Positions 2,948 to 49,157 of a stretch of DNA of 64,000 bases are shown in pieces. The notes below the pieces were generated by a model. It saw nothing but the letters and a program-made list of their open reading frames with translations. It did not search any database and was not told the origin of the DNA. Both the position numbers and the translations under genes were made by a program. The DNA comes from Candidatus Poribacteria bacterium (GTDB lineage: Bacteria; Poribacteria; WGA-4E; WGA-3G): positions 113,733 through 177,732 of the forward strand of contig JAPPIG010000108.1 in the NCBI GenBank assembly GCA_028820635.1. Reading direction: 5' to 3'. Every line of letters starts with the position of its first letter. Position 1 is the stretch's first letter.

Positions 2948-3370
2948 TTACTCGCTAAGTTTTAGACATGTTTCCATCACAGAACCGTAGGGTCCTAACT
3001 TATATAGAGGTTGCTCTTGCGGTTGTTTTTTCCAATGGTAAGGGTGCTTATGTGCGTTCCACCAACACACCGCACTCTCAAGCGCATCTGTCAGTTCCTC
3101 TTGCGTCTCAAACCTTCGTCCTTTCAGTGCCAAAGACTTCAACTGTTTCCACCAAGGTTCTATCAAGTTCAACCAACACGCATATTTCGGGATAAACTGC
3201 ACCCAAATCTCCGGCCACGCCAATAACGCCGTCTTCACATCACGACTATGGTGAGTAGAAAGATTGTCTTCAATCAGAAGCCACTTCTCTGATGGAAACT
3301 TCTCTATGACTTTCTCAATAATATTTTTTCTCTGGTTTGGCCGCTTTCTATTAACTTGATGAGGACTGCC
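2948..3370 (-). pseudogene. C-terminal fragment of a second, different IS630/Tc1-mariner transposase
   Basis: The 96-aa ORF 2948..3238 ends with the typical IS630 C-terminus ([17 protein letters not shown]...). Extending the frame upstream gives ...[10 protein letters not shown], the DDE-region motif. The N-terminal half and HTH are missing. The sequence is not identical to the 1288 element. Confidence 0.6.
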
Positions 3371-4085: not shown

Positions 4086-4877
4086 CTATTTAGTTGTAAG
4101 TGGTGTTTTGAGATGTCCCCAAACGGTAGCAAGTTTACCTACGGGATCAACGGCAAGATTTATCGGTTCGTCGCCTTCATAGACGAGTAAATCGTCTACG
4201 TAACCGGGGGCAGCAATAGAATACACATGGAAAACAACCCATTTGGCGACAGGATTTACGGCAGCATTCCGAAAAGGCAGCCCTTTCTTGCCTCTTGCTT
4301 TCAGTGCCTCGTTTCTGTCGTTACCTGCATAAAATTCAAATTCACTTTTGCTGACATCTGCGATGAGGCGAACGTATTTCCATTCATCCGTATCAAAGTC
4401 GTCAATAAGTTGCCATGCAGCACCATCGAAAAGGCGAGCAGTTTTGGCATCCCAATTGAGGTAAACTCCACCATTGTTTTGGGCAATATTATCAGCGGTT
4501 ACAACTTTGAAATTGAATGATCTGCCACCGCCTCCTATATATACCCAAAATTCAACTGATATGATGGGATTGTCAGTTTCTATAGCAATTCCAGTCCTAT
4601 CATCATTGGCACCCCCTAAAATAGCGAGAGCTTTCTTATCAGTTTTGGCTTTATCATTTGTCACCTCAAAACCATCCCCTCTCACTTCCCAATCTTTTGG
4701 TGGTTTTCCAAGCGTTTCTTTTTCAAATCCGGTTTGCACAAATACTTTTTGTGCTATAGCGGTTTGTCCTAAAGTGAGACTCAAGGTAAGCACGATAGCA
4801 AACATGAATCCCATCAAAAGCTTAGCAGTTCCTATTTCTACTGAATTGAGTCTAATGCGGAATCGGTTTCGATCCAT
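4086..4877 (-). CDS. Secreted protein of unknown function, paralog 1 of a tandem pair. Signal peptide present; a jelly-roll/LamG-like fold is suspected but unverified.
   Basis: 263 aa with an N-terminal hydrophobic signal (…TAIAQK). It is strongly similar along its whole length to the product of 5121..5906. Shared blocks include AQKV(F/L)VQTGFE, DWEVRG, ILGGANDDR, ISVEFWVYI, NIAQN-GGVYLNW and VVFHVYS. Confidence 0.65.
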   Translation of the reverse strand: MDRNRFRIRLNSVEIGTAKLLMGFMFAIVLTLSLTLGQTAIAQKVFVQTGFEKETLGKPPKDWEVRGDGFEVTNDKAKTDKKALAILGGANDDRTGIAIETDNPIISVEFWVYIGGGGRSFNFKVVTADNIAQNNGGVYLNWDAKTARLFDGAAWQLIDDFDTDEWKYVRLIADVSKSEFEFYAGNDRNEALKARGKKGLPFRNAAVNPVAKWVVFHVYSIAAPGYVDDLLVYEGDEPINLAVDPVGKLATVWGHLKTPLTTK

Positions 4878-5120: not shown

Positions 5121-5906
5121 TCAAAACGAGGAGTGTTTCTTGACATGCCCCCAGAATGTTGCCAGTTTTCCTTTTGGATCCACAGGCGTGAGGTTTGCTG
5201 GTTCTCTACCTTCGTAGATAAGTAAGTCATCTACGAAGCCTTGTGCGACTGTAGAGTAAACGTGAAAAACGACCCACTGCGCGACGGGATTTGTCGCAGC
5301 TTTCCGAAATGCGAGGTCCGTTTTGGGTTCAGCTGTCAGTGCGCCATCCCTGTCATTTCCCACGTAATAGTCAAATACACTATTCTCAACATTGGCAACA
5401 ATTCGGACGTATTTCCAAGTTTCAAACGGGAAGTCATCCACTGGGACCCAAGCGGAACCATTGTAAAGACGGGTCGCATTTTCATTCCAATTCAGATAGA
5501 CTCCACCATCGTTTTGTGCAATGTTGTCATCAGAAACAACTTTGAGATTGAAGGAACGACCAGCTCCCTTAATATATACCCAAAATTCAACAGAGATGAC
5601 AGGATTTTCAGTTTCTATGGCAACTCCAACTCTATCGTCATTCGCGCCACCTAAGATGCCAAGCGATTTATCACCGGTTTTGACAGTGTCGTCTGTTACT
5701 TGCATCTGATTACCTCGGACCTCCCAATCTGTTGGTGGTTCACCTAAAGTGAATTCCTCAAATCCGGTTTGCACTAAAACCTTTTGTGCAATTGCGGTTT
5801 GGACTGAAAAGAAGGTAAAGGTAAGTGCCACAACTAATATAAACGGTTGAATAAGATGTGTAATTCTCATTGATTGTGACTTGATGTCGTATAGGTTTTG
5901 GTTCAT
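5121..5906 (-). CDS. Secreted protein of unknown function, paralog 2 of the tandem pair
   Basis: 261 aa with signal peptide, roughly 55-60% identical to the 4086..4877 product. Confidence 0.65.
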   Translation of the reverse strand: MNQNLYDIKSQSMRITHLIQPFILVVALTFTFFSVQTAIAQKVLVQTGFEEFTLGEPPTDWEVRGNQMQVTDDTVKTGDKSLGILGGANDDRVGVAIETENPVISVEFWVYIKGAGRSFNLKVVSDDNIAQNDGGVYLNWNENATRLYNGSAWVPVDDFPFETWKYVRIVANVENSVFDYYVGNDRDGALTAEPKTDLAFRKAATNPVAQWVVFHVYSTVAQGFVDDLLIYEGREPANLTPVDPKGKLATFWGHVKKHSSF

Positions 5907-6120: not shown

Positions 6121-6903
6121 TTATGGCATCCAGATATTCCATTCACCTTTTTTCTGCCATGCGCGGCAATCATAGCACAGACACATATAACGGATAGCGA
6201 AGCGCGGGGAAGAATCAACATTTAATGTGTTGGCATGTGGTAACAGATGATGGAACAGAAGCACATCACCTTGTTTCGCAACAACTTCCATCGGTTCGCC
6301 TAAATCTATCTGTGGTAACAGTTGCAGCATAGACCGAACATGGCTTGAAGAATGCGGATTCTTTTTGCGGAACTCCCGAATCCTTTGTGGTCCTTCGGGC
6401 CATATCATCGTCGCTCCTTGATGGGAATTGGCATCGGTGAGATAGGTTAAACTTGATGCTCGAAAAGTGCCTGGGTCTAAACTTAAATCCCTTGAGTACC
6501 CATCAAGGTGAGGTGAAGGCGTATTCCACTCAGCAGAAATAGGAAATTGATTCATTGCCCAGATACTATCTGGATGTTGGCTTTTACAGTGTGGAATTGT
6601 CGGATATCTTTCGGCAAGTTGATTAAGGACGGTAAGATAATCTGGCGTGCAACACGCCAACACATCTGGATGCGTTAATCCGAAAAGTTCAATGCGCTTC
6701 TCATTCCACATCTTCTGTATGTAAAAGCCGGTGAGAAATGGGCGTTGGAAGTGTTCCCATGTGTCAGGATCGTCCGAGTCCATACCCATTGAATGCCACA
6801 TTGCTTGTTCCGCTTGGACGATAGTGTCTTTTGGGATCAAACCGGAAAGCAACAGATATCCTTCTTCTTCAAATTGATTTAGCTGCGCTGTTGAAAGCAT
6901 CAA
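6121..6903 (-). CDS. Phytanoyl-CoA dioxygenase (PhyH)-family Fe(II)/2OG oxygenase-like protein
   Basis: The N-terminus (LSTAQLNQFEEEGYLLL) is typical of the PhyH family. Length is 260 aa. Confidence 0.6.
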   Translation of the reverse strand: MMLSTAQLNQFEEEGYLLLSGLIPKDTIVQAEQAMWHSMGMDSDDPDTWEHFQRPFLTGFYIQKMWNEKRIELFGLTHPDVLACCTPDYLTVLNQLAERYPTIPHCKSQHPDSIWAMNQFPISAEWNTPSPHLDGYSRDLSLDPGTFRASSLTYLTDANSHQGATMIWPEGPQRIREFRKKNPHSSSHVRSMLQLLPQIDLGEPMEVVAKQGDVLLFHHLLPHANTLNVDSSPRFAIRYMCLCYDCRAWQKKGEWNIWMP

Positions 6904-6955: not shown

Positions 6956-7252
6956 CTAATGCGTTTTCACATATATCCACATCAAAAATATTCCCCAGAA
7001 AACAGCCAAGATCAAAAATGAGATGTTTGCAATAACCTTCGGTGGGTCGATATCAGACTTCTTCGCATTCACGAACATTTGTGAAAAGGCACTCCAGAAT
7101 ACTACGATTGCCCCCAATCCTAAAAGCCACAAAGAATGACTTTCTGCCATACTCGCAATTTGCAGAATCACTCCCACGCAAATTAGTATTGAACCTGCCA
7201 ACATTACTATGTCTACGATTTTTTTATTATCGCTCAGGAGGTTGAATTTCAT
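6956..7252 (-). CDS. Small membrane protein (98 aa, 3 predicted TM segments)
   Basis: Hydrophobic ORF with an ATG start. No recognisable family. Confidence 0.4.
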   Translation of the reverse strand: MKFNLLSDNKKIVDIVMLAGSILICVGVILQIASMAESHSLWLLGLGAIVVFWSAFSQMFVNAKKSDIDPPKVIANISFLILAVFWGIFLMWIYVKTH

Positions 7253-7320
7253 AGTAAACTCCCAATTTTGCTAATCTACCAGAACCATTCAATTCTCCAA
7301 TAATCGCATAGACTACATCT

Positions 7321-7390
7321 GTTTCTTCTTGTAGAAGCGATCTTCAAATCACGACAAAACACAATGATAGTCGGGAATCGGAGTTCCCTC
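7321..7390. repeat. IR-1 family interspersed element copy
   Basis: Contains gtagaagcgatcttcaaatcacgac … gtcgggaatcggagttccctcctac. Confidence 0.55.
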
Positions 7391-7415
7391 CTACAATACA
7401 ATTAAAAGGCTCTGG

Positions 7416-8243
7416 CTAATCTACTGAAAGTATTGACACATCAGAAGTGGGTTTAGGGAATTTCATGTCTAACCCCTCAAGCGTTTTAACAATGCGTTCT
7501 GTGATAACAAGATTCCGATACCATTTTTTATTTGCAGGTATAATATGCCACGGTGCCCAATCGGTACTACATTTTTGAAGGACTGCTTCATAAGCCTGCA
7601 TGTAATCATCCCAATAGGCGCGTTCGCGAATGTCTGCTTCGGTGATTTTCCAATGCTTTGATGGATCGCTGATTCGAGATTCAAGACGTTCTTTTTGTTC
7701 GTCTTTAGAAATGTGTAGGAAAAATTTCAGGACAACCGTACCGTTTTCAACAAGCATTTTTTCAAAATCGTTAATTTGCTGGTAACGTTGTTTCCAAACC
7801 GATTTCGGCACAAGATCATGTACGCGAACAACAAGTACATCCTCATAATGCGAACGGTTGAAAATCCCGATTTTTCCTTTCTGCGGAACGGCTCTGTGCG
7901 CGCGCCATAAAAAATCGCGAGAAATCTCATCTGCTGAAGGAACTTTAAAGCTAACGACATCACAACCCTGCACATTGATACCAGCCATCACCTTTCGGAT
8001 AGTGCCATCCTTGCCGCATGTATCCATGCCTTGCAGGATAATCAGAAGTGCATGTTGATTCTCTGCGTAAAGCAACTCCTGAAGTTTGAGCATCTGTTTA
8101 TTGAGTTTCTTTAAAGGCTTTTTCGTTTCACCTTTTTTTCGGTAAGCCCCTGTATATTCTGGGGTGTGTTCAAGGTCACAACCCTTTCCAACCCCGTTCA
8201 GACTAATGTTATCTCCGGGCTTAACAATAAAAGGTCGTTCCAT
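7416..8243 (-). CDS. ppk2: Polyphosphate kinase 2 (PPK2, single-domain class)
   Basis: Walker A motif GMDTCGKDG, plus the PPK2 blocks FNRSHYEDVLVVRVH and WYRNLVI. Length is 275 aa. Confidence 0.85.
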   Translation of the reverse strand: MERPFIVKPGDNISLNGVGKGCDLEHTPEYTGAYRKKGETKKPLKKLNKQMLKLQELLYAENQHALLIILQGMDTCGKDGTIRKVMAGINVQGCDVVSFKVPSADEISRDFLWRAHRAVPQKGKIGIFNRSHYEDVLVVRVHDLVPKSVWKQRYQQINDFEKMLVENGTVVLKFFLHISKDEQKERLESRISDPSKHWKITEADIRERAYWDDYMQAYEAVLQKCSTDWAPWHIIPANKKWYRNLVITERIVKTLEGLDMKFPKPTSDVSILSVD

Positions 8244-8348
8244 AGTCCTCCTCCATTATATCAATAACTCTGTCTGCCAAAATTATGTAGGGACAACCGG
8301 ATTCTCTCCGCATTGTCCCTACATAATGGTTTACGTGTCAGAATTTAC

Positions 8349-11300
8349 CTACTTCGCTAAAGACTCGTAGTAATTATCAACAAGTCTACGATATTCAGGT
8401 GGAACATCCTCTTTCGCAACCTGTGCCAACTGTTTCATCTCTTGAAGCATATTGAGTCGTTCCTCTATAGCAGATTCCAGTTTCTGCAGGTCACGGATAA
8501 CGAGTTCATATTTCGGGAAGGGACGATTCCGATTTCCCGGAGGGGTCTGCATAGCATCAAGCATACCAAGCCACAACTCTTTAATCTCCTGATAGGATTC
8601 AGCACCGCCGCGAGCCAAGTCATTTTCATTTTCGCCTTGCCCTTGTTGTCCCTCTTGTCCAGGCTGTTGTCCTTCTTGCCCTTCCTGTCCGGGTTGTTGG
8701 CCTTGCTGGGCATTCTGCATAGCTTGCTGTGCTTGCTGCATCCGTTCCAGAAGCTGCTGCTGCTGTTCAGTGAGTTGCTGCTGCCGTTGTTGCTGTTCCT
8801 CTGTCTGCTCCTGTCCCTCCATCCCTTGAAGTTCACGATCCATATCTTGCATCTGTTCTTCAAAGTTTTGAAGTTGATCCAGGGCAGCTTCAAGTTGTTC
8901 CTCTTCAGTTTGCGCCATATTGGCTCTCGCCTGTTGAAGATCGGCTTGTGCTTCCTCTAATGTTTCAATCACCTCTTGCTGATTTAGGTCTGCGGACTGT
9001 AAGCTGCGCCATTGCAATGCGCGCTGTGCTGTTGCCATATCTTCCGCAGTCTGTTCTTCGTTGAGTCTTCTTGAAGCATCGCCAACATTTTGGGCAGCCT
9101 CAGGATTATCTTGATTGAGTTGCTGCTGAAGGTCACCCAAATCATTTTGAAGTGACTCTAAATCCTGTTGTAGCTGACGCTGCTGATTTGCGAGTTCAGA
9201 GGCTTGACGATAATCTTCAGGACGCATACCAGATTGCTGAGACTTATTCCTCAGTTCTTGTGTCTGCTGTTGCACACCAGATTGCTCCGCAGTCAACTGT
9301 TGGAGTTGTTGAGATGCTCTCTCTAACGCGTTGTCAGTGAATTCAGCGTCGGCTCTTTCAAGTTGATCGATGGCTTGTTCAAGCTTTTCTTCCGCTTTTC
9401 CACCCTTAGCGGCACTCATTTGGGGTTGTTGTTGTTGCATCCCTTGCGAAGCCTGTTGCATCTGTTCGCTTGCCTGTTGCATGGCTTGTCCCGCTTGACC
9501 TAAACGTTGTTCTTGTGTGCCTTGCGCATTACCTTGCATCTGGCTGAGTTGTTCTGACATCTGCTGTGCTTGCTGTGACAATTGTCCTTGCTGCTGACTG
9601 TTCTGTTGCATGTCACTTGGAGACGGTTGATTTTCTTTGCTCATTTGCTGGCTTTGTTCATTCAAATTCTGCTGTTGTGCCAACATTTCGCGTGCTTGTT
9701 CTAACATCTGCTGCGTCTGTTCCTGCAGCTCGCGCTCAAGTTCTTCTTGATCTTGTTCAAGCTCGCTTTGCAACTCCTCCATTTCCAATTCAAAATTTTC
9801 AGCAAGAGACGGATCCTCACTTTGCCTCGCTTGATTAAGTATTTTGGGTATTTCAAGATTAACTTTGATGAGCAGTTCAAGAGCTGCCTGTTCTGGTGGG
9901 ATGGCTACCAGTGGTTGAATAGCATCGAGATTACCTTTTGCTTCGCCCATCTTATCAATCGCCTCTTCAAGGTTCATCATAATTTCTGGGTCAACCTGCA
10001 TTTCCTGCATATCAAAGCTAAGCTCATCTGCCACACGTTGCGTTTTATCTTTCACTTCACCTTGCTTCTCACCGGTTTTCTTAACAGCAGAGTTATATTC
10101 TTCTGTAAGCGTTGAAGGTTGTGCGTTGGTGTGCTTCCATGTTTCTCGAATAACCTGCTTCTGAGAAGCGATTAACGTAAGGAATGGATTCGGTGTACCT
10201 ATTTCACATTCTCCCCCTTCTTCAAGTCTGCGATTGAAAGGGTTCACTTCTATGAAATAAATCTCGCTGCTTGCTTTACCGGGTCCTGTAAGGGTGTTAT
10301 TGTCAGTGGCATGTGCATAGTAAGAGATGACTTCACCCGGTTCAACATCAAATTCTTCCAAATAGAAGGTATAGGCACCAGTTTTAAGGTGTTTGCTATA
10401 TTGCCCATCAGTTTTTTCCGCAACAGGTTCACTGGTAGATTCCAAGGCAAGTTCCTTCAATTCGCCAGAACCGATGCGATACATTAAGTTAAACTGTTCA
10501 ATCCCGTAGTCATCTGTAGCCCCAGCAACGATTTTGACCTCTTCCAGTTTTGTTGCACTCACATCGCGACCGGGTTCTTTGATAACCACTACAGGGGCAT
10601 TATCTGGCATTGCTTTGATAGTATACTCAATCGGCACCTCATTATTGAACCCATCAATACAGAAAAGTTCAACAGTATATTGTCCATCTTCAGCAACTTC
10701 TAAGGTTTTCGTGAGTATATTACCGTCAGCAATGACCATTTCTGAGGATTTTAAAGCAACCGCTTCATTCGCACCCTCTTCTTCAACTACGGTTTCAGAT
10801 TCTGAATTTTGGTGCGTAAACGTTGCATTCTGGATAGCCTTATTCGCAGTGAGTCTGACTTCTGCGGTTGTGCCGACAACTGCTTGAATGTCTCCACTTC
10901 CTTGCTGCACAACCGGTTTGAGATTTGTATACTCAGGATAAGTATAAGAGACGGAAATTTCTTCCAATCGCGGCATTTCAAAAACTTCTACTGTGTAGCG
11001 TTCAGATGTCGTTTCATTTGCCACAACATAGTATTCCATATCCGCGTTAACATTGAAAATCTCATAAGCAAATCCGCGTTTATCCTCCGGATTCTGCACC
11101 ATATTAATTTCTTGCTTGCTACCCTCGTTTTCTGCAGTAGGCGGCGTATTCTTGTCATAATAAGCTAAGACAACCTTTTCTGCATCCTTGCCAGTGACGG
11201 TAACCTCAATAGGTAAACTTTTCCCACTTAGAATACGAGCATCACCAGGTGTAACATTCACCTTAGTCGTCAAAATGGGATCAGTTTTTTCCCACGGCGC

Positions 11301-11849
11301 AAATATCCGCATTAGGCTGGTATGTGTTTCGGTAGGAAATAGAAGCGTAAGCAACCCACACGCTGCAATAACTAAAGTTGCTATACCGACAAATTTTCGC
11401 GTCCGACTATGATCAATCGTTGCTTTGAAATCAATACCTTTTATCCGTTGCGTCGTATCTTCAAGTAATCGCTGAAGCATGTGTGCTTCAACTGGGTCAT
11501 CTGATTCACGGTCACCGAATTGCACGGCACTCACAAGTCTATCCTCAAGATTAGGATGGCTTTCTTCAACATTGAGCGCAACATCTCGGAGGGTTAGTGA
11601 GGATCTCATCGGTTGAATAAGATATTTGATAAGTAGATATAGCGTCGCACCGATGATACCCACAAGCAGGGCAATACGAACAGCACTTGGCATCGGCATC
11701 AACCAATCAACGATTGATTCTCCAACCAGAATCGCTAAGAAACCTATCAGTACAATAGCAGCCCCTGTCCAGAAGAGGCTACGTTTCCACACACGCCGTG
11801 CATCTAAAATCCTTGTTTGTAATTCTGCATAATTTTCTCTGGTACTCAT
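8349..11849 (-). CDS. Large (1166 aa) membrane-anchored protein with a roughly 500-aa Q/E-rich coiled-coil, low-complexity C-terminal region. Possibly DUF4175-like; that family guess is unverified.
   Basis: Two N-terminal TM helices at about residues 25-75, and a third near 155-175. The central region is beta-rich and Ig-like. The C-terminal half is dominated by Q, E, L and A with heptad-like periodicity. It ends in a conserved-looking tail, PPEYRRLVDNYYESLAK. A single uninterrupted ORF immediately upstream of ppk2. Confidence 0.8.
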   Translation of the reverse strand: MSTRENYAELQTRILDARRVWKRSLFWTGAAIVLIGFLAILVGESIVDWLMPMPSAVRIALLVGIIGATLYLLIKYLIQPMRSSLTLRDVALNVEESHPNLEDRLVSAVQFGDRESDDPVEAHMLQRLLEDTTQRIKGIDFKATIDHSRTRKFVGIATLVIAACGLLTLLFPTETHTSLMRIFAPWEKTDPILTTKVNVTPGDARILSGKSLPIEVTVTGKDAEKVVLAYYDKNTPPTAENEGSKQEINMVQNPEDKRGFAYEIFNVNADMEYYVVANETTSERYTVEVFEMPRLEEISVSYTYPEYTNLKPVVQQGSGDIQAVVGTTAEVRLTANKAIQNATFTHQNSESETVVEEEGANEAVALKSSEMVIADGNILTKTLEVAEDGQYTVELFCIDGFNNEVPIEYTIKAMPDNAPVVVIKEPGRDVSATKLEEVKIVAGATDDYGIEQFNLMYRIGSGELKELALESTSEPVAEKTDGQYSKHLKTGAYTFYLEEFDVEPGEVISYYAHATDNNTLTGPGKASSEIYFIEVNPFNRRLEEGGECEIGTPNPFLTLIASQKQVIRETWKHTNAQPSTLTEEYNSAVKKTGEKQGEVKDKTQRVADELSFDMQEMQVDPEIMMNLEEAIDKMGEAKGNLDAIQPLVAIPPEQAALELLIKVNLEIPKILNQARQSEDPSLAENFELEMEELQSELEQDQEELERELQEQTQQMLEQAREMLAQQQNLNEQSQQMSKENQPSPSDMQQNSQQQGQLSQQAQQMSEQLSQMQGNAQGTQEQRLGQAGQAMQQASEQMQQASQGMQQQQPQMSAAKGGKAEEKLEQAIDQLERADAEFTDNALERASQQLQQLTAEQSGVQQQTQELRNKSQQSGMRPEDYRQASELANQQRQLQQDLESLQNDLGDLQQQLNQDNPEAAQNVGDASRRLNEEQTAEDMATAQRALQWRSLQSADLNQQEVIETLEEAQADLQQARANMAQTEEEQLEAALDQLQNFEEQMQDMDRELQGMEGQEQTEEQQQRQQQLTEQQQQLLERMQQAQQAMQNAQQGQQPGQEGQEGQQPGQEGQQGQGENENDLARGGAESYQEIKELWLGMLDAMQTPPGNRNRPFPKYELVIRDLQKLESAIEERLNMLQEMKQLAQVAKEDVPPEYRRLVDNYYESLAK

Positions 11850-12062
11850 TAATTTTCTCCTTCACCCATCTGCCGAAAAGGCAGGCTGGGTCAACTTCCA
11901 GATGTCCACCTATATTTGACGACAGTTCTTGGTGTAAGTTTTTAAAGGACTATGTTAATCTCGCAAAATTGTTTTTAACTGAAAACTATTCCCGTGATAT
12001 TGAATACATTTAGAGCGTATCTCATAAATAGGATTTGTTGGTTCGTTATCAGTTGATTCTCT

Positions 12063-12118
12063 TTGTAGGAGGGAACTCCGATTCCCGACAAGTCGCGATT
12101 CAGAGATCGCTCCTACAG
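12063..12118. repeat. IR-1 family interspersed element copy (opposite orientation)
   Basis: Contains ttgtaggagggaactccgattcccgac aa gtcgcgattcagagatcgctcctacagg. Confidence 0.55.
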
Positions 12119-12457
12119 GATTTTGAAATCGGGGTTACAAACCCCTCCAACTATTTATGAGATAGGTTGTAGTAAAAGTTAGATTAAAAACAGAATATCA
12201 GTGCCAATTTAAATAAAAAGATGATTAGTGCTGTAAAATACGCCTTAACTTGACATATCCCTATGAATTAGACACAATTGTCCCGAAAAAGTTTGAAAAA
12301 ATGCAGTCCTGATGCACATTTCACGAAAAATCTATGTTTTTAAATAATATAACAGAATTCTATATAGAATAGCAAGGAATTTTTGATTAAAAAACCAAGC
12401 AGGCAAATTTTGCAGTTTTATCCTGATTTCTATGGCTTTGATGTCGATCTACGCAAA

Positions 12458-13657
12458 CTACTCTCGACTCTGATAACAAGCTTTGCCTTTACCCCGAATA
12501 ATACCGGATTGATGCCAAGTTTCGACTGTGCGACAAATAATATCGTTTTCACCGAGGTGATGTTGTAGTTGGGACTTTGTAAACCAATCGTAGTTATCAT
12601 TTGCCAGGGCATCGGTATCCAGTTCTTTGTCAGAAAAACCGTAGATGCGGCAGACACCATTTGTATCTTCAATATCCTCAATATAGGACATCCATGGCAC
12701 CTCTAACCCAAGCTGCGTTTGGGTGAGTTCTTGTAGCGATCCGATTCGTGAACCGACATCCCAACCGACCAATTTCTCTTCTTCCCATCCTTCGCCGCCT
12801 GGCAGTTCCCAAGTGTCGGTTTCAGCATCGCGATGTAGCAAAAATCTGGCTTCCTGACCTGCAGAACACTCAATGAGCAGACGTGTTGTCGTAATCGGTT
12901 TGTCAAAACAGATGGGAATGAGATGCTTGCCATCGTCGCTCAATGCGTCCAACGCGGCGGGACTGTAAGGATAATATCCTGCTGCGGGTGGTGCGTTTAC
13001 AGCACAGTATTTGTTGAAGATACCGCACCGATCTTCAGTCGTAGTGCCTGCAGGTGCTTTGTGCCATACATGTTCATTGACTATGAGTAAGTCACCTGCC
13101 TTGAGTTCAGGATCAATAAACGGAGGCAATTCTTCAGGATCAGGTTTTGTGATATCTAAAATATGTGCGTTAGGGTCAATAACTTGTGTCAATTTATGTG
13201 ATTTTGGAGATACAAGAAATGGACCGTATTCTGAATCAAAATCTGTGAGCGAAATGATGGCAAATACCCAGTTCATTGATGAACCGACAGGTCGCCACCG
13301 TTTATAGTCGCAATGTGCACCGGCACCCTTATCTCCCGGTGTTCGTAGATATGCAACATAAGCGGTGAGATACGCTGATTGACCAAACACTGATTCCACT
13401 GCTCCAATAATCGTGGGATGTTCTGCAATCGCGGCGAGTCCTGGATTAGCGAGTCGATTACCGCTAACTATATATTTTGCTGGCTGAGGATATATCAATG
13501 AGGACGGATAGGCTTCACGTTGTACCTGTTGGACGACAGTACGCCGAAGATCATCTGCTTCCTTTGTAGATAAGGCATTACGAATAATCAGATATCCATC
13601 TTCATGGTAGTCTGCGATCTGTTGTTCAGTAAGAGATGGAGTTGCATTTGTAGCCAT
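12458..13657 (-). CDS. PhyH-family dioxygenase-like protein with a C-terminal extension (399 aa)
   Basis: The N-terminus (LTEQQIADYHEDGYLIIRNAL) is PhyH-like. The size is longer than typical, so the true start or the C-terminal domain is uncertain. Confidence 0.6.
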   Translation of the reverse strand: MATNATPSLTEQQIADYHEDGYLIIRNALSTKEADDLRRTVVQQVQREAYPSSLIYPQPAKYIVSGNRLANPGLAAIAEHPTIIGAVESVFGQSAYLTAYVAYLRTPGDKGAGAHCDYKRWRPVGSSMNWVFAIISLTDFDSEYGPFLVSPKSHKLTQVIDPNAHILDITKPDPEELPPFIDPELKAGDLLIVNEHVWHKAPAGTTTEDRCGIFNKYCAVNAPPAAGYYPYSPAALDALSDDGKHLIPICFDKPITTTRLLIECSAGQEARFLLHRDAETDTWELPGGEGWEEEKLVGWDVGSRIGSLQELTQTQLGLEVPWMSYIEDIEDTNGVCRIYGFSDKELDTDALANDNYDWFTKSQLQHHLGENDIICRTVETWHQSGIIRGKGKACYQSRE

Positions 13658-13775
13658 AACAGAAACTCCTGGAAAGTTAGTAGCACTATCTATTGTACTT
13701 TCATTGTGGACGGCACGCGGAGCGTGCCTACTACTTTTAAGTTGATATTTGCTCTATTTTATGTATACGCCTCAA

Positions 13776-15827
13776 TTATTTTACCTTAATAACAACAAGT
13801 GTCACATCATCCGCCTGCGGTTCTCCGTCTGCCCACGAAGTGCTTTCTCTAAAGATATGTTTGATAATTGTCTTTGGAGATTTATCCGCAATTTCTGCAA
13901 ATAACTCTTTTGTCTTTGGATAGTCTAACATCTCGTTTTCAGGATTCAACATTTCCGGTAAACCATCACTCATAAGCAGGAGCGTATCGCCAGATTTAAG
14001 TTCAAACGTTGCTTCTTGTCGCTCAGATCCAATAACGCCGCCTAAAGGCATTCCTTCAAGAAGTATCTCCTCTACCATGTTTTCGTCTGAACGATAGATA
14101 AGCGTTGGCGGCATTCCGGCGGATGCAAGCGTTAGTGTATTGTCATTGAACGTAGCAAGGGTCATCGCCATATATAGCCGTTTTAGGTTCATGCTCTTAA
14201 TACCTTGCGAAATCCGTTCAAGCGTTTCCAAGTTACCTGCTTCTGGTGTAGATGTTTTGAAAAGACTTTTGACAGCGGAAACAACAAGTCCTGCGTTCAT
14301 ACCGTGTCCTGTAGCATCTCCAATTGCGATGGTGAGTTGACCGTCGTCAGTGAGATTGAAATCATAATAGTCGCCACCAACCTCTGTTGCTGGACGCATC
14401 TCAAAATCCACATCAAGATTCGGAAGTTCAGGTGGACCTTGTGGCAGCATTGACATCTGGAGTTCACGCGCTTCTTCCAACTCCTCTGTTTTACGGGTGT
14501 TTTCAACTTCCAAAAGTTGTCGCTCAAGTTCCTCTGTTTCAAGTTTTCGTCTGGTTCGGGAGAAGTTGCGAGCAAGATAAATCGACATTGAAAATAGTGG
14601 TGCAAGAAATAAAATGATTATTCCCAATTCCCAGTTAATTTTGAATCCTGTTCGCGCCGCAATAAAACCGAATATGAATGGCAGGATTATAGGGGCGAGT
14701 GAGCCAAGCCCAAATATCCACGCGCCATCTTTTTTCTTAAAGATTGCAACAATAATGATTCTGACAATCTCTAAGAACGCCAAAATCGTAAATAGAAATA
14801 AGAGAAGACCCCCTAATCCTCCGCTGATATTAGACACATAGGAACCCGTAATATTAAACGTGTATTTATCAATATCAATTAGATTTACACAAAGGGTAAC
14901 AACCCATCCTGTAAGAAAGAACCAAGAGAGTTTGGGCAACTTTGGATAAAAGAGGGTATAGAGGAATAACTTTCCCGACACAAATATTAGGACATATACG
15001 CAGATAAGTAGCCGAATTAAAAACAGAATTTGTGTGTTGCTTGTCGTCCACAGCGTAAATTGGAACGTGAGAAAAATAAATGCTCCGATGCTCCCTGTTG
15101 ATATCGCGAAATAGAGGTTTTCCTTTGCGCGGGGATAAAAGAAAAACAGCAATAGATGCTGCAGCATGAGGAAAACAGTAATCGCTGTCCATACCATCTG
15201 TAAAGTGGTGCCGTGGCGAATAATGTCAACGCGCGATTTAATGCTTTGCTCCAGTGGGGCAACTACAAACCAAAACCCAAACGGAGATGAGAAGTTGGAA
15301 TACCGAACTGCAATCACATGGTCGGTTTGACCTGAAAACGAGATGACCTGCGGGTTACGCTCCCAATAAGGTTCCTCTTCCTCTTTCCGCGTTCCCACTT
15401 TACCAAAGGCATAAATCAACTCTCCGTCAAGATAGATTTCAGAAGCCCCTGCCTGATACATCACCTGGAGCGCCAGCGGCACATTCCAGAGCTGCCTATC
15501 AGGAACGGACACGTGTAGTCTGAACCAACCGATGCCCTCCCACTCGCTTTCGAATCCTCCATTTTGAAGCACGAGTGTATTAAGTGTGCCGCCGGATTCC
15601 CACTCGGTATCATCAAAAGTTGGATTTGCCCATTCTGGATTATCGCCCGGATGATACTTCCAAGGATAAAGTCCAGTTCCAGAATCTACTACGACTCCAG
15701 AATTCAGTAAGTCTGATGTCAGCACAAGTTTGTCAGGAACAGTTTCACTGTCTTGTGCTGGCACTTCGGAGATGGATACACTTATCATTAAAATGAGATA
15801 GGATATTAGAATTATCTTATGTTTCAT
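13776..15827 (-). CDS. 7TM-DISM receptor (7TMR-DISMED2 extracellular domain plus 7 TM helices) with a PP2C/SpoIIE-type Ser/Thr phosphatase output domain
   Basis: After the signal peptide come a roughly 200-aa extracellular domain, 7 TM helices, a coiled-coil linker, and a C-terminal PP2C domain with GDATGHG and the DG metal-binding motifs. Length is 683 aa. Confidence 0.8.
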   Translation of the reverse strand: MKHKIILISYLILMISVSISEVPAQDSETVPDKLVLTSDLLNSGVVVDSGTGLYPWKYHPGDNPEWANPTFDDTEWESGGTLNTLVLQNGGFESEWEGIGWFRLHVSVPDRQLWNVPLALQVMYQAGASEIYLDGELIYAFGKVGTRKEEEEPYWERNPQVISFSGQTDHVIAVRYSNFSSPFGFWFVVAPLEQSIKSRVDIIRHGTTLQMVWTAITVFLMLQHLLLFFFYPRAKENLYFAISTGSIGAFIFLTFQFTLWTTSNTQILFLIRLLICVYVLIFVSGKLFLYTLFYPKLPKLSWFFLTGWVVTLCVNLIDIDKYTFNITGSYVSNISGGLGGLLLFLFTILAFLEIVRIIIVAIFKKKDGAWIFGLGSLAPIILPFIFGFIAARTGFKINWELGIIILFLAPLFSMSIYLARNFSRTRRKLETEELERQLLEVENTRKTEELEEARELQMSMLPQGPPELPNLDVDFEMRPATEVGGDYYDFNLTDDGQLTIAIGDATGHGMNAGLVVSAVKSLFKTSTPEAGNLETLERISQGIKSMNLKRLYMAMTLATFNDNTLTLASAGMPPTLIYRSDENMVEEILLEGMPLGGVIGSERQEATFELKSGDTLLLMSDGLPEMLNPENEMLDYPKTKELFAEIADKSPKTIIKHIFRESTSWADGEPQADDVTLVVIKVK

Positions 15828-15956
15828 AAGGGATACTTCCGTAAACTATAAAAATATAACAAATTTCTTATGAAAATAGCAAGGATATTTTAGGGTAGGA
15901 GATGAAGTGATAATTTGATTGTTTTCTGACGAGGCATGTGATATTATCTGTCTATT

Positions 15957-18356: not shown

Positions 18357-18505
18357 TAAGACTTACACAAAACATCCGCCATGAATTGACCAAAGCGAAG
18401 GTATATAATACCTTTCATAATTCATGACACAGTATTATGTCGAAAAGGGTGCATAAAATGAAAAAATAGAGAAATATTATCTTCAATGTATATTGTGTAA
18501 GTCTT
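18357..18505. repeat. MITE-like unit bounded by 14-16 bp terminal inverted repeats (aataagacttacacaa … ttgtgtaagtcttaat)
   Basis: A perfect 14-bp inverted repeat sits about 120 bp apart in the MBL-hsdS intergenic region. An internal ggtatataatacc palindrome is also present. Confidence 0.4.
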
Positions 18506-18551
18506 AATAAATTATAACACAATCCAACAAACACTTCAAAATAATCGGCAC

Positions 18552-19926
18552 TTATGCCTCCGTCAACAGAATCTGCTCAACCCTCTCCTTCGCCTGCTCC
18601 ACAATAAAATCCGCTTCTTGCTTAAGTTCTGCAACGCGTGCTAAACGGTTATCAACTTCTGCTACAATCCTATTTTGAACGTCAAGCGGCGGTAAAGGAA
18701 TCTCAAGTGACTGAAATTCTTTTGAATTGATATTAGGTTGTGCAGCGGTCCTTTGAATTAACTGTAGCCATAATTTGTAAACTTTTGTGAAACTATAATA
18801 CAACACAAATGAAGGATTTACTTTTTCGGGATCAAACTTGAATCGAATCATGTAGCCTGCAAAAATAGCCTTACCTAATTCGCTTTTATAGATAAACGCG
18901 CGTCCCACCGATCCACTTCTTGCAAAGAGAACATCATCATCTTCAAGTAGGTATTTAGATTGTATTGTTTCTGCAGTTTTCCAATCATCAAGAAGATTCC
19001 CGTAATCATCTATATCAGTAATCCGAATGTACCGAATGTCTGTTTCAGGGTTTCCATCAATTGCACGCTCGTTTGCGCCATACTGCGGTTTCTTAATCAG
19101 AAGTTTCCCCAATGGAGTCAGAGAATATAGAGTTTTAAGGTTTCTAATGTAGGAAATATTTCTCATGTATAAAGGGTCAACACGCCCTTCAATTTCTCCT
19201 GCATAAACAACAAAGTACTTCTTTTCTTCAACCTCTGGCATCTTAATTCCCAATTCTGTCAGCACATAACAATCAATTGAAGCCAAAGATCCTCTGCTTC
19301 TTGTTCTTTTTGCTTTTTCTGTGCATAAGCAGAACGCATAAAATTGCTGATATGGTTTTGGATGCTGGGCCGAGGGATTGGAATAAGAATCCGCATCAAT
19401 TGATCTGTTGTTATAGCGGGGTAATTTCCGCCACTACTTCGCTGAAGCATTTGATTTAAACAAAATTGACTTCGGAGAACAGAATAAAGATACGTACGAT
19501 TTAGTGTACGGTCTTTGATTTCTCTGAGGACCGCAAATCCTGTTGAAGCAATGCAGCCATCTAAATCATTATCAATCAGCGCAATAGAACCGTGATGAGG
19601 CCTCGTTAGACTGATAATAATGTCATCTTTGTGAACTATATGTTGGGCGCGACTCGGAGCCTCCTTAGTCAAAGTATCAGAATAAGATGCTTCTCCTGTC
19701 TCTCGACTTACGCTACTGATTTCAATGTATCTAAACTTATCTTCTTGGTGTTCCTCTGGATCCCATCTTTGGTGACACAGTTTAGCGATATTTCCTAATA
19801 TTTCATGATTGCTTCGGTGTAAGGCAGAAACTAACTTTTCAAAACGTGGGTGATAGAAGTGTGGATCAAGTCTGTCGCTTATCTCGCCCCGATAGGTGAG
19901 AAAAATCTGATTTTCTCTATCAGGGC
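18552..19926 (-). pseudogene. hsdS: Type I restriction-modification specificity subunit HsdS, frameshifted or split. ORFs 19259..19672 and 18552..19286 lie in different frames, and about 250 bp of the upstream TRD1 are not in frame.
   Basis: ORF1 ends in the central conserved region (IPIPRPSIQ…LWLQL). ORF2 carries TRD2 plus the C-terminal conserved helix (LPPLDVQNRIVAEVDNRL). The two overlap by 27 nt with a 1-nt frame offset, and ORF2 can only start at TTG. The N-terminal part of TRD1 is absent from ORF1. Confidence 0.6.
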
Positions 19927-22194
19927 TTACCCGAAAAAATCTGGGTTCTCAGTAAATTTTCGGTATTCCTTACAGATGGCGTTAAGGTCGTTAATCGGGT
20001 CTTTACGTCCTGTTGCGTCATAACCGATACGTTCAGCGATTGCCATAAAGATTGGATGATTGGCATTTTTCCGAACCCATTCTCGGATGTCCTCTGTGTT
20101 CTTATCAGTCCATTCCTCTTTAACAGCGTCAATCTTTTCCTTGTATGCTGCTTTTATTTTACTTTCCCACTCTGGATCGGCGGCATTTCTGAATGCTGCG
20201 CGGTATTCTTTCTCTAACGTGTTCAGATCGCTTGTTTGTGCCTTAAGTTCTGCACGTGCGGTTTGCGGGTCGAACAATTCAAATTCTGTGGTAGGCGTAG
20301 ACTCAATTTCTGGGAAGAAAAAAGCACTGAGGTCTTGGACCTTTTTGGTTGGTACTTTCTCAAGTTTCTGATTTAAGGCATCAATATTGTCCAAAATTGA
20401 GATGAATTGCTGTCTATAGTTTTCTGTTACGTCAACCTGTGCTGGAGAACCTTTTGCAATAATAGTTTGTCGTTCATTTTCAAGTTCCTCAATCTTGGGT
20501 GTATAGATTGTTTTATTTTTACTCTCGATTTGATCAATTGCATCTTGATAGCGTTCAAATTCCTGTTCCGAAAACTTTTGGAGGAATAGGATAGACGTTT
20601 TCACACCCGCACCATAATGTGAGAAAGCAATTTGTGGGAGCGAAACAACAGCGAGGATTTTAAAGTGGCGTTCAATGTAATCACGAACATATTGCAGTGA
20701 GGAGTTGGTCAAAATTCCATCTGGTAGGATAATCGCGAGTTTGCCTGTTTTCCACTTGAGAAAATCAAAACAACGTTCAAGAAACAGAATTTCTGTTTTT
20801 TGAGATGTGCCATTTTTACCAAGTTCATAATCTCTAAGATACGGAAGTTCTGACTGTTTGATAACTGCACCGAAAGGTGGATTAGTAAGGATTATATCAA
20901 ACTGATCCTTTTCAAATTCGCTATGCTGGTTGTAGAGGATATCAAAACCGACAAGCGCGTCATTACTGATAACGTTGCTATGCCCATCGTCATGGATAAT
21001 CATATTCATCTTAGCAACGCGGGCAATTGAGTCGTTAACTTCTATTCCGAAGAGACGTTTTTCAGCAAAGTCGTGCCAGTAGAGAAAATGATCACGACTT
21101 TCAGTTTCTTCATCGTAGAACTCGGATGCCTGTTTTCGGATGTAATCCATGGCGTGCAACAGAAAACCACCTGAACCGCAAGCGGGATCGAGGATTCGTT
21201 CTTCATGATCAGGTTTAACCATATCCACCATAAACTCAACCACATTGCGTGGTGTGAAAAACTGCCCGATTTCGCCTTTAAAAAAGTTTCCTAAAAACCG
21301 CTCAAATGCAACGCCTTTCACATCCAAATCGGTTTGGCTGAGACTAATTCCTTGCAAATGATTGACAACAGAAAACAAGAGATTATCATCGATTTCAATA
21401 TTCTCTGTAAATACCTCAGGGTCTAATGTTTTTGCCTCTTGATAGAGGCTGCTAATTCGGTTCGCAACGGATTCCGGTTTTTCATGTGTTTTAATTTGAA
21501 AATCGTAGGGTTTACCTTTTCGTCTCGACTTTTTCTCATCTCTAATTTTTATAAAAAGAATTTTGGCGAGTTCATCAAACGCTTGTGTAGGTGCAAATTT
21601 CCCACCTTGCCAAAGCGTATCGTGGCATTTCTCAAGGACACGGATGAGTTCGCCTCTTTCAATGACAGACAGTTCTGATTGTGGGACACCCTTTAGATAT
21701 CGCCACTCTTGAACTTTGCCATATCTGACTGGTGGATCGGCAATGATGTTTTGTGAACGTTCGCCCGGTTCATGGTTTTTGACATCAAAAGGTCTACGCG
21801 TATTTCCCGCAACGACAACGGCAAAATATCCACCCAAAGAGTTGCAGTTGCCAAAAACCTGTTCAATTGCCTGATTGAATTCTGCGTCAGAAATACCATC
21901 TTTTTTGCATTCAACCACAATAAAAGGGTCTTTCTTATCATCGTCTCGGAAAACGACAATATCGGCAAGATCAGAAGGGGTTCGACGTGGAACAGTTACC
22001 TCTAAATCAATTCGGTTTGGAGGGTATTGATAATGCTCAATTAACTCAACGTAAAATTTTGCGCGGACCTTTTCTTCAGGGTCAGTAAATCTATAATTTT
22101 TGTCGGGGGCTACGTAATGGATTCTTTTTCCATCATTAAGGAATTTGATGTATCCTTTTTGTTCTCCGATTTGGAGAAAGTCAGTTTGGTTCAT
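19927..22194 (-). CDS. hsdM: Type I R-M system DNA methyltransferase subunit HsdM (N6-adenine MTase), 755 aa with N- and C-terminal extensions
   Basis: Has the NPPFG catalytic motif (IILTNPPFGAV) and an AdoMet motif (LDPACGSGGFL). It is followed directly by hsdS. Confidence 0.85.
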   Translation of the reverse strand: MNQTDFLQIGEQKGYIKFLNDGKRIHYVAPDKNYRFTDPEEKVRAKFYVELIEHYQYPPNRIDLEVTVPRRTPSDLADIVVFRDDDKKDPFIVVECKKDGISDAEFNQAIEQVFGNCNSLGGYFAVVVAGNTRRPFDVKNHEPGERSQNIIADPPVRYGKVQEWRYLKGVPQSELSVIERGELIRVLEKCHDTLWQGGKFAPTQAFDELAKILFIKIRDEKKSRRKGKPYDFQIKTHEKPESVANRISSLYQEAKTLDPEVFTENIEIDDNLLFSVVNHLQGISLSQTDLDVKGVAFERFLGNFFKGEIGQFFTPRNVVEFMVDMVKPDHEERILDPACGSGGFLLHAMDYIRKQASEFYDEETESRDHFLYWHDFAEKRLFGIEVNDSIARVAKMNMIIHDDGHSNVISNDALVGFDILYNQHSEFEKDQFDIILTNPPFGAVIKQSELPYLRDYELGKNGTSQKTEILFLERCFDFLKWKTGKLAIILPDGILTNSSLQYVRDYIERHFKILAVVSLPQIAFSHYGAGVKTSILFLQKFSEQEFERYQDAIDQIESKNKTIYTPKIEELENERQTIIAKGSPAQVDVTENYRQQFISILDNIDALNQKLEKVPTKKVQDLSAFFFPEIESTPTTEFELFDPQTARAELKAQTSDLNTLEKEYRAAFRNAADPEWESKIKAAYKEKIDAVKEEWTDKNTEDIREWVRKNANHPIFMAIAERIGYDATGRKDPINDLNAICKEYRKFTENPDFFG

Positions 22195-41538: not shown

Positions 41539-43008
41539 TTATAGCACAGCATTTTGCGCGGGATTGAGCAGTAGCGATGGCAAAATACCGATGAGCAAAA
41601 CGCCAATTGCAGCAAGGGCTAATCCGATGACTAAGGTTGAGGGGTATGGATTGAATTCCAACTCTTCTTCAGGTTCACGCATATACATTGTTACGACAAC
41701 GCGTAGATAATAGAAAGCTGAAATCGCAGTATTGACAGCACCAACGATGACAAGTGAGACAAGCCAAGTGTTAACTACATCTGGTTGAACAGCGGCTTGA
41801 ACAGCAGATTTGAAGATATAAAATTTTCCGACAAACCCTGCAGTTGGCGGAAAACCCGCAAGGGATAGAAGCATTAGCGTCATAAATATGCCGAGCAGAG
41901 GCTTACGGAAACCGAGTCCTGCGTAATCGGAAATCGTTAAACTTTCTCCATCAGCGGTTCTCGCTAAGATAACCGCACCGAAAGCACCGATATTCATAAC
42001 GCAGTAAACAAGGAGATAGAGCATTGCGCTTGATGTACCATCATCGTTTGCTGCAGCTAAACCTATTAACACATAACCTGCATGTGCAATACTTGAATAG
42101 GCGAGCATCCGTTTGATGTTTGTTTGCGCTATAGCAATAACATTACCAACTGTCATCGTCAACATCGCCAACAACACGATTACACCTGTCCATTCAGACT
42201 GTATATCTGGCAACGCTTCCATAAAAATCCTAATAAATGCTGCAAATCCAGCTGCTTTTGGTCCCGCAGAGATGAAGGCAGCGATTGTGGTAGGTGCGCC
42301 TTCGTAAACATCTGGTGCCCATTGGTGGAACGGAACGATAGCAACCTTAAACCCAAACCCAACGATAAGTAGGAATGTCCCTGCTAAGAGAAGTGGGGAT
42401 TGACTCTCAGTGGTGAGTTTCTCTGCAATCCCTGGAATACTTGTTGTTCCAGCAGCACCGTAAATTAAAGCGATTCCATAGAGGAAAAAGGCACTTGCAA
42501 ACGCACCAAGCAATAGATATTTCATTCCTGCTTCACTTGAAGCAGGGCTTTCACGGAAATAGCCTGCTAACACATACAACGACAACGACATTAGTTCTAA
42601 GCCGAGGAAAATGATAATCAACTCATTGCCAGCAGCCATTAACATCATGCCGAGCGTTGCAAGCAGGATAAGCAGATAGTACGGTCCCTGTTTTTTATCG
42701 CCTTTCCCTAAATAACTAATTGAGATGAGGGCAACCAAAATTGTTGAAACGAGGAAGATAATGTTGAAAAAGAGGGAGTAACTATCTATCCTGAACATGT
42801 CGTTGAACTGGGTTTGATCTGTCCCGGCTTGCAGCAGATTAATAGATGCCCATAAGGCAATCACTGCACCAACAATTGTCATCCATCCCAATGTCTTTTT
42901 TGAAATAGAGTCAATCATGTCAAAGACAAGGACAATAAGCAACGTTGAAACAATGACAAGTTGCGGCATTAACAATGACCAATTAATCTCAGGTATCTCA
43001 ACTGGCAT
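41539..43008 (-). CDS. nuoN: NADH-quinone oxidoreductase subunit N
   Basis: 489-aa polytopic membrane protein of the NuoN/ND2 family. It is the last gene of the nuo cluster. Confidence 0.85.
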   Translation of the reverse strand: MPVEIPEINWSLLMPQLVIVSTLLIVLVFDMIDSISKKTLGWMTIVGAVIALWASINLLQAGTDQTQFNDMFRIDSYSLFFNIIFLVSTILVALISISYLGKGDKKQGPYYLLILLATLGMMLMAAGNELIIIFLGLELMSLSLYVLAGYFRESPASSEAGMKYLLLGAFASAFFLYGIALIYGAAGTTSIPGIAEKLTTESQSPLLLAGTFLLIVGFGFKVAIVPFHQWAPDVYEGAPTTIAAFISAGPKAAGFAAFIRIFMEALPDIQSEWTGVIVLLAMLTMTVGNVIAIAQTNIKRMLAYSSIAHAGYVLIGLAAANDDGTSSAMLYLLVYCVMNIGAFGAVILARTADGESLTISDYAGLGFRKPLLGIFMTLMLLSLAGFPPTAGFVGKFYIFKSAVQAAVQPDVVNTWLVSLVIVGAVNTAISAFYYLRVVVTMYMREPEEELEFNPYPSTLVIGLALAAIGVLLIGILPSLLLNPAQNAVL

Positions 43009-43077
43009 TCAAAACCTCCGTTTTTAAACTCCGAAATAACAATAAATCATGAGCGTCAAACTTCATATATTTTTCTT

Positions 43078-46160: not shown

Positions 46161-46191
46161 AAAAATCTCCTTTAGAATAACTTAACTTTCA

Positions 46192-49154: not shown

Positions 49155-49157
49155 GTT

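Follow-up and report, generated by a model that had tools for sequence, protein, structure and literature searches.

What does a protein of 1166 amino acids (aa), half of it extremely rich in glutamine and glutamate, do directly upstream of a polyphosphate kinase gene in a poribacterium? The question arises from a window of 64,000 nucleotides (nt) of Candidatus Poribacteria DNA (assembly GCA_028820635.1, contig JAPPIG010000108.1, positions 113,733 to 177,732), to which the coordinates below refer unless another locus is named. An initial annotation had read there a large open reading frame (ORF) with a co-oriented gene for polyphosphate kinase 2 (PPK2) directly downstream, and the pair exists as described: both ORFs lie on the same strand, 105 nt apart (Table 1), the smaller one matches the PPK2 family, and an AGGAG ribosome-binding site is located 8 nt 5' of the ATG of the larger gene. 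The answer that we consider probable is that the product of the large gene is the Poribacteria orthologue of a DUF4175 inner-membrane protein, widespread but uncharacterised, and that its extra glutamine and PPK2 neighbour are features of one lineage. That the protein belongs to the DUF4175 family and, jointly, that the PPK2 adjacency is a clade-specific synteny, we hold to be very likely.

A DUF4175-type family had been suspected initially, and Pfam bore this out, if marginally for the window protein itself: DUF4175 (PF13779) was matched at 29.5 bits against a gathering cut-off of 27.3 (E 2.6e-7), and 29 of 30 aligned homologues match the same model, the best at 5.8e-16. An exhaustive HMMER search over 1.84 billion cluster representatives yielded 895 proteins at E<=1e-30, many of them 1100–1200 aa long and aligning end to end with the query (residues 5–1166) at 25–30% identity; since such end-to-end homologues occur at E = 0 to 1e-60, chance is excluded. 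The 120 best matches are all 1149–1208 aa in length and 65–97% identical, and those that are named all belong to Candidatus Poribacteria. Given so marginal a match, the branch that includes Poribacteria, Acidobacteriota, Bacteroidota, Gemmatimonadota, Calditrichota, Latescibacterota, Zixibacteria and KSB1 is a distant subfamily of the DUF4175 seed family. In common with PF13779 proteins, the window protein carries N-terminal transmembrane (TM) segments, a beta-rich middle aligned by the Pfam model and a long, polar, low-complexity-looking C-terminal half, in about 0.8–1.2 kb of protein. The DUF4175 architecture, with N-terminal TM segments, a long extracytoplasmic part and a polar helical tail, was recovered by hydropathy, in about 130 representatives and in an AlphaFold2 model. 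The NCBIfam model TIGR02302, presumably an alphaproteobacterial DUF4175-type protein, is one that we take to be linked to PF13779.

A search of the PDB with the protein and with the family profile gave composition-level matches only (designed helical bundles, SNAREs, huntingtin polyQ fusions and MafG) and, thus, no solved homologue. The searched literature contained incidental mentions of the family and its neighbours, and no functional study of the protein itself. A TIGR02302 gene appears in a table of sites bound by CenR in Rhodobacter sphaeroides, where the CenR two-component system regulates cell division and envelope biosynthesis (PMC9275681). AdvA, an essential division protein of Acinetobacter baumannii, carries a DUF4175 annotation beside two predicted TM helices and upstream of residues 203–238 (PMC7481262); its likeness to the 1166-aa protein consists of that annotation near TM helices, the two having been compared by annotation alone.

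Three hydrophobic segments were located in a hydropathy scan, at residues about 24–45, 50–75 and 152–172. The N-terminal TM hairpin proposed earlier is therefore present as TM1–TM2 but it does not stand alone, being followed by a third segment. TM segments occur at about residues 22, 50 and 147 in nearly all distant homologues, and both TM segments and length are alike in the approximately 130 representatives. The arginine- and lysine-rich N-terminus is predicted to be cytoplasmic and, from the positive-inside rule, we infer that the N-terminus and the loop of residues 76–151 are cytoplasmic and the remaining approximately 990 residues periplasmic. The TM2–TM3 loop carries the family motif EExxPxLEDRLVSAVE, here EESHPNLEDRLVSAVQ, in which A91, E95, P99, L101 and R104 are invariant, or nearly so, in the family alignments. 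Further family motifs are PGD (201), PGRDxxAT (426), DDYG (446), PGDxISYYAxAxD (504), SDIYFxExRPF and QKxIIxxTWK (563), the first four of them in the Ig-like domains described below. The C-terminal tail, PPEYRRLVDNYYESLAK, had been singled out as sharply conserved-looking, and it is: nearly all homologues end in the form [VI]PxxY[RK]xLVxxYYxxL[AS], which marks the tail as a family signature, and P1150, Y1153, V1157, Y1160 and L1164 are invariant in the family alignments A2 and A3.

An AlphaFold2 model was built on a 30-sequence alignment and yielded a mean predicted local distance difference test score (pLDDT) of 79.8 and a predicted template modelling score (pTM) of 0.40; a profile search for additional sequences returned mostly Poribacteria and only about 12 others, hence the shallow alignment. 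Residues 1–183 were modelled as membrane and cytoplasmic helices. The immunoglobulin (Ig)-like, beta-rich middle of the initial annotation took the form of three beta-sandwiches. Residues 555–1165 formed seventeen helices of 20–64 residues each, connected by short turns, mostly at pLDDT 85–95, and the model of this half resembles four-helix bundles, with de novo designed bundles as the best matches. Hydrophobic positions of the protein show a significant 3.5–3.6-residue periodicity in many windows. Profile–profile comparison of family sub-alignments, with reversed profiles as control, revealed three homologous modules within the helical half (Table 1).

These three modules, together with the short helices and the turns between them, argue for a string of helical bundles rather than one long coiled coil, and the "coiled-coil half" is probably better seen as antiparallel bundles that arose by ancient triplication. 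Uninterrupted heptad helices exceeding about 100 residues in a parallel oligomer, as in a classical long coiled coil of the surface-fibril or ruler type, were not found. The modelled rod would comprise three homologous repeats of about 110–130 residues and a C-terminal bundle, ending in the invariant YRxLVxxYY helix. The helical half resembles talin rod domains, vinculin, alpha-catenin and generic four-helix bundles in fold class and not as a family: there is no sequence relationship, and the 1166-aa protein is bacterial and predicted to be periplasmic. TolA domain II and the Lpp "ruler" span the periplasm as one long helix or as a trimeric coiled coil. The window protein shares with them an inner-membrane anchor and a long, polar helical segment of constrained length that is predicted here to be periplasmic, but its helices of 20–64 residues are folded into bundles, after three Ig-like domains, and homology was not detected. 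With these corrections the observations of the initial annotation were confirmed, and its interpretation was partly supported.

Gene neighbourhoods were compared by clustering neighbouring ORFs and scanning them with Pfam, after a locus scan of one genome per species with a 10-sequence alignment as query. Of the loci so recovered, 51 belong to Poribacteria and 29 to other phyla, namely Acidobacteriota, Cytophagia, Rhodothermales, Gemmatimonadota, Calditrichaceae, KSB1, Zixibacteriota and Latescibacterota. Outside Poribacteria the canonical array consists of genes for TPR/peptidase-MA, DUF4159 (one or two copies), MoxR (AAA_3), DUF58 and BatA-N/VWA (about 700 aa), then DUF4175, a VWA/GATase1-like protein (about 760 aa) and an unknown one of roughly 350 aa. 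BatA/VWA lies directly 5' of DUF4175 in 25 of the 29 loci, and in the remaining four the upstream sequence was short or the ORFs were not resolved. Loci of the Latescibacterota type retain the upstream core, with a histone-deacetylase-like gene and an aldo-keto reductase gene downstream. As a side observation, the Ig-like domains of the DUF4175 protein resemble complement MG domains, and a VWA/GATase1-like partner (13583-15865 of locus L063) has a weak MG2 (alpha-2-macroglobulin) match; this may reflect a structural theme shared within a complex.

The MoxR-DUF58-BatA/VWA core found at these loci also occurs in the Bat (Bacteroides aerotolerance) clusters (PMC5700661, PMC3557215). Envelope operons of this kind include bb0170-bb0176 of Borrelia and RL3499-RL3502 of Rhizobium. 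Classical Bat operons, as described, encode BatA, BatB, BatC (TPR), BatD and BatE (SH3), and no DUF4175 gene has been reported there. The MoxR/VWA clusters of the Bat type are conserved, and among their VWA components one or more is an inner-membrane protein with a periplasmic VWA domain; their function is undefined (PMC5700661, PMC3557215).

We tentatively propose, as a mechanism that may well hold but for which we would not claim even odds, that the DUF4175 protein would be a scaffold or stalk subunit of an envelope complex built by the MoxR/VWA ("Bat-like") operon. The invariant motif in the cytoplasmic loop would dock the MoxR/DUF58 machinery, the Ig-plus-helical rod of conserved length would project into the periplasm and the C-terminal YRxLVxxYY helix would serve as a distal docking element. 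From the literature this receives indirect support only, through the Bat-type clusters, the CenR-bound TIGR02302 gene and the AdvA annotation. In Poribacteria the ancestral operon would have been scattered, and the PPK2 gene placed 3' of DUF4175 in one sub-clade. The same architecture could be read, in our view with little likelihood, as a transmembrane sensor in which the periplasmic Ig-like domains and four-helix bundles perceive an envelope or ligand signal, like the ligand-binding domains of four-helix-bundle chemoreceptors, and pass it via TM3 to the conserved cytoplasmic loop, which would control the MoxR/DUF58 machinery. However, Pfam and NCBIfam scans revealed no recognisable output domain such as HAMP, kinase, GGDEF or anti-sigma, the resemblance to four-helix bundles is generic, with de novo designed bundles as the best matches, and the conserved length and threefold repeat look structural.

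The downstream partner is well defined. Its 275-aa product matches the Pfam family PF03976 (4e-74) and also NCBIfam TIGR03709, where it reaches 387 bits and the cut-off is 247; among PDB chains it is nearest to 5lc9 and 5o6k, both polyphosphate:AMP phosphotransferases (E about 1e-91 to 2e-91). It scores below the cut-offs of the equivalog models for ADP-polyphosphate phosphotransferase and PAP, and no substrate preference is hence assigned to it. Conservation of its linkage to the large gene could be confirmed in part. Of the 51 Poribacteria loci, 45 have PPK2 downstream, these being all the loci with at least 65% identity, and it is immediately adjacent in 42 of the 45, with one to three ORFs (1–3 kb) intervening at L023, L026 and L048. 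But it was not found in the fetched flanks of the six deeper Poribacteria loci (54–55% and 36% identity), nor at any of the 29 loci of other phyla (in 20 of these the sequence extends for 2 kb or more downstream). Adjacency across divergent carrier lineages, by which a DUF4175-PPK2 two-gene module would be recognised, is thus not observed.

Gene order suggests how the pair arose. Deep Poribacteria show miaA - DUF4175 - PhyH-like, and the PPK2-linked clade shows (Yip1) - DUF4175 - PPK2 - (98 aa) - PhyH-like - two secreted unknowns - PhyH - sulfatase. On this comparison PPK2 looks to have been inserted into a pre-existing block, which is conserved as a whole although functionally heterogeneous. 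Given that the upstream partners of the family are constant and the downstream neighbour depends on the lineage, PPK2 is probably the Poribacteria version of a lineage-variable downstream neighbour, and its adjacency to DUF4175 would be inherited synteny and not a functional module.

The 105-nt spacer between the two genes contains, right after the stop codon of the large gene, a hairpin with a perfect 16-bp stem and an inner stem, and next to it UUUU. The UUUU is followed on its 3' side by TGaTATAAT, a possible extended -10 box, and then by GGAGGAGG before the ATG of PPK2. At least eight related Poribacteria loci each have a single copy of the GTAGGGACAA...TTGTCCCTAC hairpin in this position; its outer stem is invariant and its inner stem varies yet stays paired, and other Poribacteria clades carry different hairpins at the same intergenic position. 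It narrowly misses the consensus terminator rule, with four U where five are needed; a consensus promoter/terminator scan detected no more sites than in shuffled sequence, and an Rfam scan of 7000–12600 gave no matches, so that the hairpin is not a known RNA family. We also considered a dispersed repeat and rejected it, there being one copy in the window and one per related locus, always at the same site. The hairpin would suit a terminator, or else an element for processing or stabilisation, lying between genes that are probably regulated separately.

These results bear on the possibility of a functional re-wiring, in which the DUF4175 protein, having left the MoxR operon, works with PPK2 in sponge-associated Poribacteria, for example by a cytoplasmic loop that anchors or regulates polyphosphate-driven nucleotide regeneration at the inner membrane, or by coupling the envelope state to polyphosphate use. 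PPK2 is directly downstream and co-oriented in 42 of the 45 linked species loci, and the adjacency holds across 65–97% identity although upstream genes differ. We nevertheless consider such a partnership improbable: the linkage is missing in deep Poribacteria and in every other phylum sampled, a strong stem-loop with a U-run, a possible extended -10 box and a separate ribosome-binding site lie between the genes, and unrelated genes (PhyH-like, secreted unknowns and sulfatase) are equally conserved in the block. Moreover, PPK2 is cytoplasmic while about 85% of the large protein is predicted to be periplasmic, and the family sequence motifs are unaltered in the PPK2-linked clade.

There remains the glutamine. 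Between residues 651 and 1075 each 50-residue block contains 32–56% Q+E and 52–70% Q+E+L+A. The enrichment described initially, of about 500 residues mainly of Q, E, L and A, is therefore real, but the strongly Q/E-rich stretch covers about 425 residues within a helical half of about 600 (555–1165). The longest glutamine run is four, codons are mixed (CAA/CAG 68/50) and tandem repeats in the DNA, as detected by TRF, are confined to 8637–8788, the GQE/GQP patch, which is the only truly low-complexity, repeat-bearing segment of the protein. A polyQ or slippage tract was accordingly ruled out, with runs of at most four, mixed codons, repeats at 8637–8788 only and indels only at residues 1051–1075. 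Among Poribacteria homologues indel variation is limited to the latter residues, and residues 700–1050 are almost gapless, with an identity of 0.72–0.85, and as conserved as the N-terminal domains.

The length of the helical half was compared between QKxIIxxTW and the C-terminal YRxLVxxYY: the median distance is 579 residues (interquartile range 577–592) for Poribacteria-like proteins and 618 residues (interquartile range 589–641) for 115 proteins of other lineages. This near-constant length across all phyla contradicts a lineage-specific low-complexity expansion, which had been envisaged as an outcome. Composition differs between the groups, with Q at 17–23% and R at 4–7% in PPK2-linked Poribacteria, Q at 14–18% and R at 7–8% in deep Poribacteria, and Q at 4–21% and R at 7–20% in other lineages. 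From these proportions, the glutamine richness is apparently an R-to-Q compositional shift in a segment that is Q/E/R/A-rich in every family member, with Poribacteria at the Q-rich end.

A more ambitious combination would be that the DUF4175 rod was freed from the MoxR/VWA operon and co-opted, with an inserted class-III PPK2, into a lineage-specific envelope-polyphosphate function, that the glutamine enrichment reflects new, possibly host-related interactions and that the family constitutes an unrecognised, periplasm-spanning "talin-like" rod of constrained length in many diderm phyla; taken together, we give this very little credence. Least probable is a fast-evolving, functionally loose Q-rich expansion, or a surface fibril or adhesin possibly in host contact, for which the glutamine maximum in sponge-associated Poribacteria (19–23% versus 4–21% elsewhere) and the repeat-bearing, length-variable GQE/GQP patch could be cited, but the helical half is nearly constant in length in all phyla, conserved in Poribacteria like the folded domains, built of anciently duplicated repeats and devoid of long glutamine runs or of DNA repeats beyond residues 1049–1080, and the protein has no export signal beyond the inner membrane.

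Several observations weigh against the preferred reading of a family orthologue with a scaffold role. The DUF4175 match is marginal and extends only over residues 283–457, against model positions 182–321 (140 of 825), and the protein has no match to TIGR02302, nor to any NCBIfam family at E <= 0.01; nevertheless, a just-above-threshold match that is shared by nearly all the aligned homologues, and the missing TIGR02302 match, point to a divergent DUF4175 member. No family member has a demonstrated function, and the scaffold role is read from architecture and gene neighbourhood only. With 30 aligned sequences and a pTM of 0.40, the modelled domain arrangement and rod length are not established. 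Homologues of MoxR, DUF58, BatA/VWA, DUF4159 and the VWA/GATase1-like protein were not found in the window or in the Poribacteria flanks, and retention of MoxR and the 700-aa BatA/VWA in Poribacteria is not demonstrated by this search of window and flanks. Finally, the PPK2 adjacency is kept down to 65% identity while the upstream flank is reshuffled, which leaves some room for selection on the DUF4175-PPK2 pair.

DUF58, normally part of MoxR operons, occurs in Poribacteria as a stand-alone gene, including on a chromosome that carries a PPK2-linked locus. Examples are found at 562–1443 of L043 and at 10001–10876 of L086, the latter between a DDE transposase and an ABC ATPase. In one Poribacteria clade genes for a 335-aa BatA-N (weak)/VWA protein and a 385-aa unknown (weak DUF8173) lie about 8 kb upstream of DUF4175 on the opposite strand (L001 1215–3385 and L005 1207–3380) and may be a remnant of the ancestral operon.

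Table 1. Coordinates in the 64,000-nt window of the two genes, the protein segments and the intergenic hairpin.
Feature	Position	Strand	Evidence
DUF4175-family inner-membrane protein gene, 1166 aa	8349..11849	-	ORF list; Pfam DUF4175; full-length homologues
TM1-TM2 hairpin, residues about 24-75	11625..11780	-	hydropathy; AlphaFold2 helices 2-50 and 55-82; homologues
TM2-TM3 loop, residues 76-151, predicted cytoplasmic	11397..11624	-	family alignments; topology by positive-inside rule
TM3, residues about 152-172	11334..11396	-	hydropathy; conserved TM at about 147 in homologues
Three tandem Ig-like beta-sandwich domains, residues 196-290, 295-414, 420-536	10242..11264	-	AlphaFold2 model
All-helical Q/E-rich half, residues 555-1165	8355..10187	-	modelled as tandem antiparallel helical bundles
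Helical repeat 1, residues about 581-688	9786..10109	-	HHalign vs repeat 2: 95%, E 4e-8; reversed-profile control about 1%
Helical repeat 2, residues about 739-850, most Q-rich part	9300..9635	-	HHalign vs repeat 3: 96%, E 1e-8; reversed-profile control 15-17%
Helical repeat 3, residues about 872-1002	8844..9236	-	HHalign vs repeat 1: 79%, E 1.5e-5; reversed-profile control <1%
Disordered, indel-prone GQ(E/P) patch, residues about 1049-1080	8610..8705	-	pLDDT <50; 33% gaps among Poribacteria homologues; TRF 8637-8704
C-terminal family motif VPPEYRRLVDNYYESLAK, form [VI]PxxY[RK]xLVxxYYxxL[AS]	8352..8405	-	C-terminus of nearly all full-length representatives, many phyla
Terminator-like hairpin AUUAUGUAGGGACAAU...UUGUCCCUACAUAAU then UUUU	8279..8327	-	RNA fold -35.8 kcal/mol, z -4.98
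PPK2, class-III-like, single-domain, cytoplasmic (predicted polyphosphate:AMP/ADP phosphotransferase), 275 aa	7416..8243	-	Pfam; NCBIfam; closest solved structure 5lc9

Other features of the window were noted in passing. The pair has a PhyH (phytanoyl-CoA dioxygenase-like) gene on either side (6121–6903 and 12458–13657, reverse strand), and PhyH-like genes are plentiful across the Poribacteria synteny block (clusters c2 and c5). Two tandem paralogues, each about 262 aa long, with hydrophobic segments at the N-terminus and unmatched in Pfam, are encoded at 4086–4877 and 5121–5906 (reverse strand), and their homologues (cluster c1) are kept 3' of PPK2 in most Poribacteria loci. The 600-nt gap 5' of the large gene contains a nested palindrome at 11990–12200 (fold z-score -4.27), with CTCATAAATAG...CTATTTATGAG around CCTGTAGGAGCGATCTCTGAATCGCGAC...GGGAATCGGAGTTCCCTCCTACA; locus L018 carries a similar string, GGGAATCGGAGTTCCCTCCTAC, between genes, and the palindrome may be a Poribacteria repeat resembling miniature inverted-repeat transposable elements or repetitive extragenic palindromes. 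Restriction-modification genes at 18552–22194 (reverse strand), encoding a Methylase_S specificity subunit and a 755-aa N6_Mtase with HSDR_N, are missing from the otherwise syntenic locus L004, where the product of the large gene is 97% identical, and they are probably a recent insertion. A DDE-type transposase fragment at 2948–3238 (reverse strand) adjoins an isochorismatase-family gene, which suggests local rearrangement; the counterparts in L004, at 18473–20229, match DDE_3. Complex I (nuo-like) genes extend over 41539–54611 (reverse strand), with a CitMHS_2 transporter gene (43078–44562) between two Proton_antipo_M subunit genes.

An odd, giant, Q-rich protein is thereby placed in a known DUF family, and its pairing with PPK2 is seen to be clade-specific. 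Its striking features are either family-wide (the tail, the helical half and the Ig-like domains) or quirks of the lineage (the glutamine enrichment and PPK2), and nothing about it is categorically new. Within the literature searched, the family description has no precedent. It comprises the conserved topology, three Ig-like domains, three helical-bundle repeats that are ancient and constrained in total length, the invariant YRxLVxxYY and EExxPxLEDRLVSA motifs and, in at least eight phyla, a fixed place after MoxR-DUF58-BatA/VWA. What the Bat-like envelope operon does has been open since 1999, and in these phyla the DUF4175 subunit is its largest and most distinctive component predicted to be periplasmic. 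The motifs, rod length and partners of DUF4175 provide concrete experimental handles for work on the MoxR/Bat envelope operon.

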